Shown piece after piece: positions 42,725-48,700 of a DNA stretch of 64,000 nucleotides. Source of the stretch: Adineta vaga (Eukaryota > Animalia > Rotifera). The notes below the pieces were generated by a model that ran no database searches, was not told the origin of the DNA, and was given only the letters and a program-made list of their open reading frames with translations. The translations under genes were made by a program, and so were the position numbers. Where the stretch lies: assembly GCA_021613535.1 (NCBI GenBank), contig CP075495.1, positions 12,958,001 through 13,022,000 of the forward strand, given 5' to 3'. How positions within the stretch are numbered: the stretch's first letter is position 1; the number at the start of each line of letters is the position of its first letter.

Positions 42725-45700
42725 CTATTTCAGAACATACTCAACTTGCATATTAAGATAGACCATCCTAAAGAAAAAGAAAATTCAAATGAAAATAGTT
42801 TTTCACTAAAGATCATTATTCATTTACCAATAGATTATATTAAATACAATAAAGGCAACGGGAAAGAGAACTGCAGAGATTATATCTACCTGAAAAAAAT
42901 AAATCAATGGTAAACATCGAGAGAGATTTTTCCGTTTAAACTTACAAATTGTGCACTGTCACGAACAGGTTTAGCTGCTTTTGCAATCATTGCTGGTTGT
43001 GGTAAAACAACTTGTGGCAATGGATTTGATTGTGTTGATGTTAGAGGATTAGCATTTGACATAGCTGAATATTGAACATGTGAACTTGCATTTCCACTTG
43101 TATTTCTATCACCACCACTTGATTTATGAACAAGTGCTTCCATTGTTTCTGCACTATCATTTGCATCATCTTTTTTATAGAATTGTACTTGAGCAAGACG
43201 ATTTCCGATAACCTAAATCACAGACATATTCATTAATATTAATTTTCAATTAAAATCAGAAAGAAAACATTGAACAACAAATAAATTTCAGACTAAACAA
43301 AGAAAAGAGAACAAATGTCGTGAAAATAATATTCATTCAAAAGAGGAACAACAAGAACTAAATAATGTGCATTTAGTGAGAATGTGATTGAAAAAGAAGA
43401 AGAACGACGAAACTGATTTGTGATAGTTTATGTGCATCAGTGATAAAACAAGATAGGTAAAATATTCTAGTGAAGGAATTACTCTCTCAGCAGCAAAAGT
43501 CGAGCCATTCTGGAGTTTTTGTATTAAAGTTAATTTCGGTGGTCTGTCCGGACCTTTTCTCTATAAAATACAAGCATTTCAAATATCTCTAATTCACATC
43601 AACAATGATAAACACAAAAAATAAAATAAAATATAATAAAAGATTCCAATTCAAAATATTCATTTTCGATGTTTCATTTCAAAACAAATCACTTACTTCT
43701 TTGGAAAATCGAACTTGTTGTCTTAATTCACCTTTTCGAGCAATAACATTGACTAAGGCGTATTCAAGTAAACCAGCAAAGACAAAAACAAGACAAGCTG
43801 ACATCCACACATCAATTGCTTTTATGTAAGAAACACGCGGGAGTTGTGATCGTATACCTAATGAAAAACAAACATTCGTAGAAATTAACATACTAATTTT
43901 CATTATAATTTACAAATTAAGAAAACGAACAAATAAAAGAGTAAACAGCAAAAGCCAGAATGAAGCAAAAGGTATCGTGGGGTATGGTTTTGCTTACCTG
44001 AGCTTTGAGTAGTAACCGTCAAAACAGTCAAAAGTCCGACAGAAATTCGGGCAGGAACCTGATTATGGGATATACGTAGGATAAAAATGTATCATATATG
44101 TTGTTTCTCATCGATCTTACCGATTTATGATCGATCCAAAATGAAACGAAAGAAAGGATCACAATAAGCATTGATGGAATATAAACTTGTACTAGAGAAA
44201 TTCATTGAATTTTCTTTTTTTTTAAACAAACAATATAATTGAAAAAGTAGAAAACTCACCGAGATAATAACCAAACAAACGTTTCAAATGTAGAACAACA
44301 AGAAGGCATGTAAAACTGCCTAGAAAATCAATTGTTTCAAACAATGATAAGACAAATATACAAAGTTTTCTGACTTCATATATAATATTAATCAAAAAAC
44401 AACTTTCTTCATTTGAATATCTTTCTTTCTTTCTCTTTTTGCTGCTTATATAGGATGTCTGAATGAAGCGGAAAAGGCAAATAATGATATAGACAAAGAA
44501 AACACAACGAAAAAAAAAAGAAATGTCAATCAAAGCATTGAGATGAAAACTAAAATGGATTCATCAGTGCAGAAATAATAGTCTGTGCTAAAATGGATTG
44601 TGAAAGCGAAATGCGCGTGACAATTAGCGTTATAATCAAAATAACACAACATAGACAACTATAGATATTAAATGAAAAGCAAGCAAGCAAGAGATTTGTA
44701 TTTCTTATACCTGCAGCTTGTGTTGATATAGTAACAATGCTCAATAAACTTAATAGAGTTCTTGCTGGATGAGATTTATAATCGACCCAAAAGCCGAGAA
44801 ATGATATTGTTACAATCAATGTTGACGGTAGATAAAGTTGTTGAATATATAATTCAAGATTTCGTTGTAATTGTAAATGCACTTCGATACAAGTATATAC
44901 GCCTATGAGCGGAGTGAAGGAAAGCTTAGTTTAAATAAGAAAATCAAGAAAAATTTTCTCTCTATATAAGCAGCAATAACAGCAACAGCATTAATGACAA
45001 TATTAGACAAATGAAGAAAGATGATTTTTGTTTAAATTAAACTATAAAAAAAGATTTTGTTTTTATCTAACCTGTTGCTGTTGTTCGATTACAATATTTT
45101 GCTTCATGATTGCTTAAAACAAAATCAGGCATTTCAAGATCTTCATTAACACGAATAGCGCTGACATTTTGAGATTCATCCCAATAAAATGCCAAATCAT
45201 TGGTAGAAAATGCATCTAATTAGAGATGAAGATAAATTAATCAATAATAACATTTTCATTGAAAGCAAAGAAAAAGAAGCAAATCACACATACAACTGCC
45301 AATATTAACTACACATGTTTGATTATCAAGTGGAAACTTCTGTAATTTCATTTGGCAATCAAGTTTAAGTAATAGCCTAAAAGAATGAAGATAACAACAA
45401 AATCTTCTATTTAATTTCCTTAACAAATCGAAGAAACGAACCGTTGACTGTAGAGTACTTTACCATCACGATGAATACGAATTAAACGATTGGGTACGGT
45501 TATATCACTACGTTTACCTTCTTTGGCATTACGAAAAAATGAATCAGGCACCCATATACGATCAATAAGTGAATAATGGAGAGTAATTTGTGGTGCTTTT
45601 GCTGCCCAATCTGTTCCGGAATAATTAAGTCGAGGATCATACCATGATTGACGAAAAATAATGTCAGTATTATAATCCTAAGTTTATGATAAATATTCAT

Positions 45701-48700
45701 TTGTAAAAACGAATAGTTATGATTTCCTTAATGAATATGTCTTACCATATTAACTTCATTGATAGCTGAAATTGTATTAATATGAATCGTCATTGTCACA
45801 TTGCACGGTTCTAGAAATATGAGCATGATCAAAATAGAAAAAGAAAAGAAAACAAAACCAAACAAATCTACTCACTATGTTGATCGAAAAATGGCCGAAT
45901 ACGCCTATCATAACGACTTGAATTAATGAGAGTATCGAGAAATTCTTCAACGGTTTTTATTGATGCATCATTGCGTTGTAAATTTGTACTAGAAATGAGT
46001 GTGAAGATTGTTGTTAAAACATGCAAATCAATACGTAGACGCATAGTGTTTTGATAATCACGAAACAAGATAGATAATTCAGATTTATCGTAGCAGTGTT
46101 TTCAACAATGATAGATAGCATCGATTAATATATGTAGAAAGAAGAGATAGAAAAAACCAAAAAAACGTCTTAGCCAACCAAGATGGTATAACAAACACAT
46201 ACGTCTTTTTCAAAAGAGAATCAGTAACAGAAGATGTTGACAGTGTATTGATAGAAATAATGATGACAGTATACTGATACTGATACTGGTAATAATAGCA
46301 TTTCTTTGGGTTAAAAAGAAAGGATAAATAAACACTTATGAAGAATATATCGACGTAAAAATTAAGTTGATTTGTTAGTTGTTTTGCTCCACTGATAAAT
46401 CTATAGGTTTTCTTCTTTTCTTCTATATCGAGATTGAATTAAGTTTTATCTGACTGTTTGACTGACACTCAATAACAGTAATGCGTGCGTGTTATGCTTG
46501 GTAAAAGACACGCACAGATGCGGCGATTGACGGCAATAATAATGACGAGCACATAAAATCGGCAAGAAATGAAAACGAGAGCGATAGACAGAGATAATGA
46601 CAAAGATAGAATGAGAGAGAGAGAGATAGAGAAAGTGAAGGAGAGCGAACGGCAGAGAGAGAGAGGGAGCGGGAAAAGACGAAGGAGAAGCCGACAGAGA
46701 AAAGAAAACTTGTCTTGTCGTCATTAAACGGAAATATTAATGCAAAAAAATCTTTTCTCGGCCTGTTTTTCTCGTACAAGTTTTAAAAACTGTTATTGAA
46801 GATCTAACCATCTATTCATGTCAAATTCAAACGAACATACATTATAATTTATATAACAAACACGCGATTTTCTGTTTCTTTCATCATCTGACAAACAAAA
46901 TCTAGATTCGTTATTATTAATAAACAAAAATCAATAATGAATATCTGTTTATATCATAAATTTAGCTTTCGATTTGTTTGAATATCAAAATCATATGGTT
47001 TCAGTTAGATATATTATTTCAGTGGGAATAGAATTCTTCATAAGCTGGAAATATTGGACGCAGAATACAGGTTTTAGTTCAACATATTTCCGTTGTTTCA
47101 ATCAAGGCAGTCAACAGGAAACTTCGGCTATGCTGTTAGTTTATAGGCTACTTGTCAATCTCTCCTGTCTCTCATTGATGAAATAACTGAACTTCTAGAA
47201 ACTATTTTATTACAAGAGCAATCAATGTAATAACAATGCTTGATTTCATGCATGAAATACTTCCTTTATTATCTCTTCACCTTTGTCTTTCTTTTTCTTT
47301 TATAAATAGACAATTTCATCATTAGTCAAGATTATTTGACAAGATATTGTGCAGAAAAGTTATCAAGATATTGATGAGTAAGATGTCAGATAGTTTTTTA
47401 ATTCATTATAATCTATAGATGTTTACGTCAATATATTCTGAAACATCGATGAAAGAATGTCTATCATTTCCTTATGTTATCTGAAAACTATGCAAAATGT
47501 CCATATGTGACATAAAGCATTTACAATGAAGACGAAAATGCCATTATAATCCTTTCTATGATAGAAACGACAGAAGTAAATGGTCTCCTAGGGTGTGATG
47601 TTTTTTTAATCTGGAAAGACGATAAGTTCGTTTTAGATCGAATTGCTTCATAATGGTCAAGGACCTGATGTTTTCCGTCTATGTGAAGATTTTTTTTTAT
47701 CCGAAAGAAAGAAAATGATCTTGTATTAATTCAAGTCTAGAATATGAAAACATCCGACATGTGGCAAACAATGACAATCTTCTAGTGGTTCGTTGGTTGC
47801 TTTGAACATCTTCCTGCTTTATATTTGTAGAATTCATGAAAAACATTGTATTTTCTTTCTAAACGTCCGTTCTATTCTATCTCTAACATCTTGTTTACTG
47901 TTGTTCTTCGATCAACTAATGTCGATACTAGATTAAATTACAAAGAAAACGTTGAAATGAAAGAGGGAGAAAAAAGGAAATTTTACTCTTGAAGAAATCT
48001 AAAGTGAATGCAATTAAGAAAAGAAAGCAATCAAAAACCCACCCGATGAGATCATTAGTGATCAAATTGTTCTTATTGGCTGACTGTTCTTCACAAAACA
48101 ACGGATATTGAAAGAAAAGTGCAGCAAGAATAACTATGATTATAATATTGGATAGAATCATGGATAAGACTGATGAACATGACAATCGAAAAAAGAAAGA
48201 AAGCTTCGATGAAGCTAGATAATAATCACTCTCCTACAACAGTTGTTCCATTGTTAACGTCGTCGTTTCTATACATTTAGTTTTCTTCTCTCTCCGATTT
48301 TTTTCTCAATTCTGTTCTTATTTACTAAGATTATTCTGTAACAATTTTTGCCTTGCAATTGTTCACCGCATCGTAAACTCGATGCATGAATTTTTAGACG
48401 TTGCTAGTCGATTAAGGCCTTGCCTGTGCCCTTCTTCATTTTTTTCTATTGTTGTCTTTCTTTGCCCTCATCTCTCCCTCTCTCTCTCTCTCTCTTCCTT
48501 CATATTCTCGTTTTTTTCAAATTTTTCTACATCATTGTATTCGCTTGTCATGCTCAAAACCAATTTACACCAGCACTATTCTATTCATGGCAAGGAGAAG
48601 CTATAATAAACGATTACGTTCTTTTTATCGACACCCTCTTACAGTGTTCACTTTCCTATTGTTGGCCTTCATCGATTGGGATCAACGTCGCTTTCGCTTA

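Follow-up and report, generated by a model that had tools for sequence, protein, structure and literature searches.

Splicing that exchanges channel domains is not a new concept, as it has precedents in unc-49, avr-14 and the insect nicotinic receptor subunit nAChR alpha6. In the unc-49 gene of C. elegans and H. contortus, one N-terminus is spliced to one of three tandem C-termini, giving the GABA receptors UNC-49A, B and C; according to the available text of the same source, UNC-49B works alone and UNC-49C only in heteromers, in which the picrotoxin IC50 goes from 0.9 to 166 uM (PMC8841521). The nematode avr-14 gene produces alternatively spliced subunits, GluCl alpha3A and alpha3B, with differing ion-channel regions, of which the A form is silent as a homomer (PMC8841521, available text). 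As for insect nAChR alpha6, the available text of PMC2064938 describes internal alternative exons (8a, 8b and 8c) that change residues of TM2. More generally, mutually exclusive exon events are reported to be enriched in ion channels (PMC9741552, available text).

RNA pairing that governs the choice between exons has also been described, in the available portions of the following sources. In Drosophila srp, where pairing is bidirectional, the second exon is chosen through an upstream helix and the first through a downstream one (PMC4691838), and in human ATE1 (R1/R3/R4) a single central element lying between the exons has two competing partners (PMC7797038). Left, right and bidirectional dockers are catalogued in PMC6071210, the available text of which does not include a single docker with partners in the two outer introns, the layout described below.

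Here, we analyzed a Cys-loop anion channel gene on the minus strand of a 64,000-nucleotide stretch of the genome of the bdelloid rotifer Adineta vaga (this whole stretch is the window in what follows). The gene contains two versions of one 64-residue segment, cassette A, which is a single exon, and cassette B, which is split into three exons (B1, B2 and B3), both preceded by a shared exon that we call e5. Like unc-49, it joins a common N-terminal half to alternative channel-coding copies, which makes unc-49 a model for an alpha/beta-like reading; unlike unc-49, which swaps whole C-terminal copies, the bdelloid gene swaps 64 internal residues and shares M3, the loop and M4. It differs from avr-14, in which C-terminal halves rather than an internal cassette are alternative, and from nAChR alpha6, a cation channel with single exons of like structure, for whose exon 8 neither the inclusion of loop C, beta10 or M1 nor a change of the 9' Leu is described in the available text of PMC2064938. 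Moreover, srp has two separate central elements where the bdelloid gene has one, both ATE1 partners lie just upstream of exons where the bdelloid partners lie in two outer introns, and neither srp nor ATE1 has a three-exon block as an alternative, as the bdelloid gene does. The original prediction, made from this DNA alone, held that the mutually exclusive exons known in such channels mostly affect extracellular segments and knew of no whole M1-M2 swap between one exon and a three-exon block. This novelty was overstated, since unc-49 and avr-14 swap channel halves and nAChR alpha6 exons change M2 (PMC8841521 and PMC2064938, available text). Our literature search, which had subscription journals mostly outside its reach and supplements unread, found no paper on the bdelloid gene or its layout; this pore-swap gene, which is real, conserved and spliced, is apparently undescribed.

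Results

The A. vaga protein P0016 (I4U23_009804) matches cassette A at 100%. The best solved relatives are glycine receptors and the C. elegans GluCl (GlyR alpha, E 1e-93, then GluCl, 1e-84), and both A-only and B-only proteins score over the cut-off for PF02931 and PF02932. The Pfam ligand-binding domain of P0016 spans residues 55-268 and the cassette begins inside it, at residue 254. A predicted structure with four membrane helices (mean pLDDT 78.6) places a strand (254-267), M1 (269-292) and M2 (298-322) within the cassette; because it rests on an alignment of 74 sequences, mostly ordinary subunits, this model says little about A itself. The species has a further copy of the gene, P0059 (I4U23_024058), which is found on a different contig and carries a B-form annotation. 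Genome-contig and viral-contig collections were also searched and contained no relative.

When P0016 is aligned with Loa AVR-14, R148 stands opposite the loop A Gln and N89 opposite the loop G Arg. All residues of the GluCl agonist motif are present, namely R108 (loop D), S176 (loop E), Y206, T253 and Y/F256; P0016 has the loop A arginine, the loop B and loop C aromatics and the loop C Thr, and no loop G arginine. In the available text of PMC4338433, a loop A arginine without a loop G arginine is the pattern of lophotrochozoan GluCls, and those of SmGluCl-2 type resemble the bdelloid protein in both respects as well as in the full amino-acid-agonist motif and in PAR; avr-14, by contrast, carries the ecdysozoan loop G arginine. 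By alignment, the bdelloid gene bears the lophotrochozoan GluCl arginine signature, and since it pairs a loop A Arg with a loop G Asn, gating by glutamate is predicted. The likeness to SmGluCl-2 is one of sequence, and the bdelloid agonist is a prediction.

As can be seen in Table 1, the two cassettes lie between e5, whose donor serves both A and B1 from upstream, and a shared exon encoding M3. Cassette B (60+71+61 = 192 nt) is equal in length to cassette A, every exon edge of both is AG/GT, and both are free of stops and phase 1/phase 1. Their alignment is gap-free, with identity at 30 of 64 residues and at 108 of 192 nt (34, 48 and 26 of 64 at the three codon positions). A and B are homologous alternatives of equal phase, as expected of mutually exclusive tandem-duplicated exons. 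The coordinates, lengths, phases and residue identity agree with the original prediction.

Table 1. Features of the channel gene, given as positions in the window
Feature	Position	Strand	Basis
Proximal-ATG coding exon (signal peptide, start of extracellular domain)	45876..46042	-	Translation; N-terminus same in P0002/P0003/P0017; RNA-type contigs span 45876-46472
Shared extracellular-domain exons 45810-45746, 45677-45442 and 45376-45294 (loops G, D, A with Arg148, E, Cys-loop)	45294..45810	-	GT-AG joints in 4/4 runs; alignments
Shared exon e5 (loops B, F, first half of loop C)	45072..45215	-	Joints e5 to B1 and e5 to A
Core of upstream selector, S1 (CTTTCTTCATTTG), 51 nt past e5 donor	45008..45020	-	Invariant in 5/5 distinct loci with the intron
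Second arm of upstream selector	44962..44975	-	14-nt complement of 44453-44440
Cassette A, single 192-nt exon (end of loop C, beta10, M1, PAR, M2 with 2'L, 9'V)	44711..44902	-	Splice bounds, e5-to-A joint, selection, tree
Docker, 5' arm	44440..44453	-	Complementarity, duplex energy
Docker core D (12-nt AAATGAAGAAAG and preceding base), 83 nt before B1 acceptor	44403..44415	-	Invariant in 6/6 distinct loci with the intron
Cassette B, exon 1 (end of loop C, beta10)	44260..44319	-	Joints, phase
Cassette B, exon 2 (M1)	44121..44191	-	Joints, phase
Cassette B, exon 3 (PAR, M2 with 2'S, 9'L)	43998..44058	-	Joints, phase
Candidate downstream selector S2, weak and degenerate	43942..43970	-	Best docker partner region in the intron; 31/300 shuffles as good
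Shared exon (M2-M3 loop, M3)	43697..43857	-	Contig joints, tblastn
Shared 3' exons (optional exon about 43560-43483, M3-M4 loop exon, two M4 exons)	42740..43560	-	Joints in 4/4 runs; tblastn

Both cassettes carry the PAR motif before M2. Residues 2', 6', 9' and 13' of M2 line the pore, the 9' Leu being the gate and 2'/6' the picrotoxin-binding positions. In M2 numbering taken from a gap-free alignment to GlyR alpha-3, B has 2'S and 9'L, and A has 2'L, 4'S, 9'V and 15'A, as originally read. The leucine gate is present in B and absent from A. Because the cassette includes the second half of loop C and beta10, the binding domain is nearly but not fully shared, which qualifies the original view that both forms have the same one. 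Divergence between the cassettes is complementary (44259-44319 versus 44711-44902, minus strand), B being changed in beta10, where it has Leu/Ile at a position that is Glu in all 21 A variants, and A in M2. A consistent difference in the loop C aromatic was ruled out, A having Phe in 15 of 21 variants and Tyr in six. The intron after A opens with a GIR look-alike, which was weighed as a trace of a retro-copied origin and set aside because other loci do not keep it.

Two further variations affect the shared parts of the gene. For a 26-codon exon in the M3-M4 loop (43483-43560, minus strand), inclusion and skipping both occur in 4/4 runs; the exon is kept in L003, L006 and L007. There are also alternative first exons, at 48042-48161 and 45876-46472 (minus strand); the public model P0016 begins at 48161, versus a start at 46042 that is backed by RNA-type contigs and by the models of other species.

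Cassette A is conserved among bdelloids. Of 55 candidates in a protein search with A, 32 passed and all 21 that are named are bdelloid (Adineta, Rotaria and Didymodactylos), with 74-89% identity across the three genera once P0016 itself is set aside. The order A, B1, B2, B3 was found in five of seven metagenome loci (L001, L002, L003, L006 and L007), four of which are distinct, the introns of L002 and L006 being identical; L005 stops before B and L004 is a spliced transcript. The dN/dS of A is 0.06-0.33 in 15/15 pairs, next to 0.08-0.37 for shared exon e5 (10 pairs) and 0-0.13 for B (10 pairs), and A is therefore under purifying selection. Within M2, positions 1'-6', 8' and 10' are invariant among the 21 distinct A variants, 2' is always Leu and 9' is Val in 20 and Ala in one; 14' Lys (17/21) and 16' Glu (16/21) are common, neither being found in the copy in the window. 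Among 91 non-bdelloid M2 segments, a set biased toward B because B served as the query, 9' is Leu in all, 2' is Ser/Thr in 90 and 6' is Leu in 88, as it is in both A and B, versus Thr in vertebrate GlyR. A tree of 38 rows and 64 columns, with numerous unresolved forks and a bootstrap that had yet to stabilise, gathers the 21 A variants in a single branch (100/100) whose stem is very long and places B close to the outgroups. Together with the outgroup 2' and 9' residues, this topology indicates that A is the derived copy, having undergone one strong divergence and then been maintained. In its gene model, the monogonont orthologue P0071 has a single B-like M2.

The distance of A from every outgroup M2, and its faster evolution than B, are what one would expect if A were a dead duplicate, or an artefact of assembly. 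This is scarcely credible, given the same layout in independent contigs, an identity of this level across three genera, a dN/dS well below 1, spliced joints, and the conservation of its acceptor context and of the pairing elements described below. Of the outcomes that would have told against the original prediction (A missing or decayed in relatives, A always in tandem with B, or mis-assembly), none is seen in the contigs, the conservation or the dN/dS, and A was found conserved when it was looked for in relatives.

Elsewhere, the Ridgeia model P0057 contains two different beta10-M1-M2-M3 blocks and is possibly another alternative-pore gene, the Elysia model P0056 repeats an identical block and is likely an assembly artefact, and Soboliphyme P0070 resembles two fused models.

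Splicing was followed in five of 24 runs (X1-X5), as contigs rather than reads, the RNA nature of which is a guess; such contigs drop rare forms, and a gap in them proves nothing. They join across GT-AG introns throughout. For the copy in the window, the joints of the B form, e5 to B1 (45072 to 44319), B1 to B2 and B2 to B3, are present in 4/4 runs (15/18 joints listed), and B3 to M3 (43998 to 43857) appears as matching loose ends. The joint from e5 to A (45072 to 44902) is present in X1 and X3 (6/6 joints listed). The joint from A to M3 (44711 to 43857) is not among the joints of this copy listed in the five runs and is seen for the second copy only. There, a 249-nt record (X1 and X3) consists of 27 letters of e5, a diverged A and a loose end (27+192+30 = 249). 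Its A differs from that in the window at 18/101 aligned letters, the eight differences listed all being silent, and its loose end matches the M3 exon at 20/23 letters versus 6/23 for the intron after A. Judged by its letters, this record is an A-only transcript, e5 to A to M3, of a second gene copy, presumably that of P0059. The A-only contig comes from two of four runs, both from one study, and was not seen in X4 or X5; X5, from a second study, shows only the B3-to-M3 side of the second copy and nothing on A. Each cassette is consequently found alone in RNA-type contigs, B in the window's copy and A in the second. In another bdelloid, P0052 is a full-length B-only protein (505 aa, from a 1946-nt contig) that has its first 269 residues in common with P0026/L004, in which e5 is spliced to A and followed by intron. 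The mutually exclusive splicing originally proposed is supported in part, by the contigs with A alone and B alone; for A in the window's copy, the A-to-M3 joint is not seen.

In that copy, A contigs end at 44710 (X1 and X3) or at 44706 (X4). These ends would be branch points of the assembly, the paths from A to B1 and from A to M3 parting at 44710, and those from A to M3 and from A into the intron at 44706, which makes minor tandem or intron-retaining products of the copy possible. Another reading is that a real fraction of transcripts, most plausibly those of the window's copy, includes both A and B, which would yield a subunit of six helices, one M1-M2 hairpin being additional. The product would be in frame and 391 nt separate the donor of A from the acceptor of B1, so that neither frameshift nor crowding forbids it; the contigs ending at 44710 stop where the two paths would part, and the strong downstream helix described below is absent from this copy. 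Among the 47 stored gene models of at least 300 aa, 11 are A-only, 14 B-only and 22 tandem or mixed. However, all of these except P0052 are predictions, and the tandem ones disagree within species (P0002, P0004, P0008, P0017 and P0018). No A-to-B1 joint is found among the joints listed in two comparisons (15/18 and 6/6), e5 joins B1 in 4/4 runs, the second copy has a clean A-to-M3 contig and, in the protein, a repeated beta10 strand would find no sheet to pair with. More broadly, no joint indicating double inclusion or double skipping is listed, in contigs that drop rare forms. We regard tandem use on this scale as unlikely. A single-sequence fold of the tandem model P0003 was uninformative (mean pLDDT 38.7), and short proteins crossing the A-to-M3 or A-to-B junction were discarded, 6/6 matches being genomic read-throughs.

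It is also conceivable that A in the window's copy mainly gives intron-retaining transcripts, the truncated or decayed product of which would lower receptor output without making a second pore. L004, in which e5 is spliced to A and followed by 106 nt of intron, fits this reading, as do the contigs that include the intron beside A in X1, X2 and X4 and the missing own-copy A-to-M3 joint. The same contigs are nevertheless explained by partly spliced precursors, a truncating exon would not need an M2 nearly invariant across genera, the read-through peptides are unrelated among species, and AATAAA and ATTAAA are absent from the intron after A. This makes retention as the main fate of A quite improbable. 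The frame running from A into this intron (44550-44710, minus strand) is open for at least 37 codons and contains a hydrophobic run.

The introns flanking the cassettes (169, 391 and 140 nt) contain pairing elements, most other introns of the gene being 55-78 nt long. These conserved elements are new here and absent from the original prediction. The S1 core is the exact reverse complement of the docker core, and both are unchanged where the surrounding introns align poorly. The S1-docker duplex has an energy of -34 to -46.5 kcal/mol, beats 300/300 dinucleotide shuffles in 5/5 loci and, in whole-region folds, forms with a probability of 0.99-1.00 in 4/4. It encloses A and brings the distance from e5 to B1 from 752 to about 135 nt. 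Own-locus pairing is the best in three of five loci and covariation is weak; the core helix, being invariant, shows no compensatory change. The helix around A is, on these folds, a well supported and conserved prediction.

The evidence for a second docker partner differs among loci. Behind B3, S1 recurs in L006 (a 16-nt perfect match, 0/300 shuffles) and in L001 (1/300), and docker-S2 pairing is no better than shuffles in the window (31/300), L003 (48/300) and L007 (141/300). The second partner is thus significant in two of five loci, the window's copy not being one of them. When S1 is removed in silico from the fold, the docker pairs behind B3 with a probability of 0.97 in L001, 1.00 in L006 and 0.44 in L007, versus 0.01 in the window and 0.00 in L003. 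A competing helix around B is consequently predicted for some gene copies only; the weak S2 in the window's copy fits, without proving, the missing own-copy A-to-M3 contig. From these models, conserved intronic pairing likely steers the choice between A and B.

Other features of these introns were noted. YGCY, which we take to be a Muscleblind-type motif, occurs 15 times in the 700 nt of the cassette-flanking introns (45071-44903, 44710-44320 and 43997-43858) versus four times in 928 nt of ten other introns, a lead for presumed Muscleblind-type control that is partly confounded by the helices. The acceptor context is CGCTC(N)TAG before A (44903-44911, minus strand) in all six sequences with the site, with no plain pyrimidine tract, and ATTTTCTAG before B1 (44320-44329, minus strand) in all six. 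By eye, there appears to be a local hairpin downstream of S2 in L001, L006 and L007, with arms that differ yet are complementary.

Discussion

Two duplicated loop C-beta10-M1-M2 cassettes are conserved in this gene, appear singly in transcripts and are most likely mutually exclusive. We think it rather probable that this exclusive use comes with a functional A protein. B-only splicing and splicing of e5 to A exist for the window's copy, and A-only splicing of e5 to A to M3 for the second. How one of the two cassettes might be selected can be pictured as follows. The introns within B are short (68 and 62 nt) and would be removed locally, so that B acts as one 192-nt unit opposite exon A. The S1-docker helix is predicted to loop A out, making B the default form. 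If the intron between e5 and A were spliced first, or if a protein sat on S1, the docker would be left free to pair with S2 behind B3, and this second helix would loop B out, giving the A form. As the second helix is predicted to be strong in some copies and degenerate in the window, A-only output may be lower there, or dependent on other factors.

Judging from its residues, B would form a normal glutamate-gated chloride pore. Five 2' Leu would crowd the inner pore, and A, with its 2' Leu and 9' Val, would therefore most likely act in mixed pentamers with B, in which it may alter gating, conductance and sensitivity to pore blockers, as UNC-49C does with UNC-49B. By this analogy, we give A about an even chance of being a modifying subunit in particular. 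The fullest form of the model, which is possible and which we hold only tentatively, is that one central element toggles between partners in the outer introns and thereby swaps a one-exon for a three-exon pore module; that A has preserved a different gate, 2'L with 9'V, across bdelloid genera, one gene supplying both a conducting subunit and a partner that rewires its gate; and that the two copies tune their A:B ratio by how strong the downstream helix is.

The gene is a natural pore-swap, its two subunits differing only at 34 of 64 residues in loop C-beta10-M1-M2, and one version replaces the gate leucine that is invariant in the 91 homologues retrieved with B. For annotation, the 22 of 47 stored models that fuse both cassettes probably describe a wrong six-helix protein. 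In the literature searched, no report of long-range pairing control in rotifers was found, and the locus offers a compact (1.2 kb) test case for such control, with natural strong and weak second helices. If the choice is indeed steered by pairing, a single bdelloid gene could supply a main channel subunit as well as one that modifies it.
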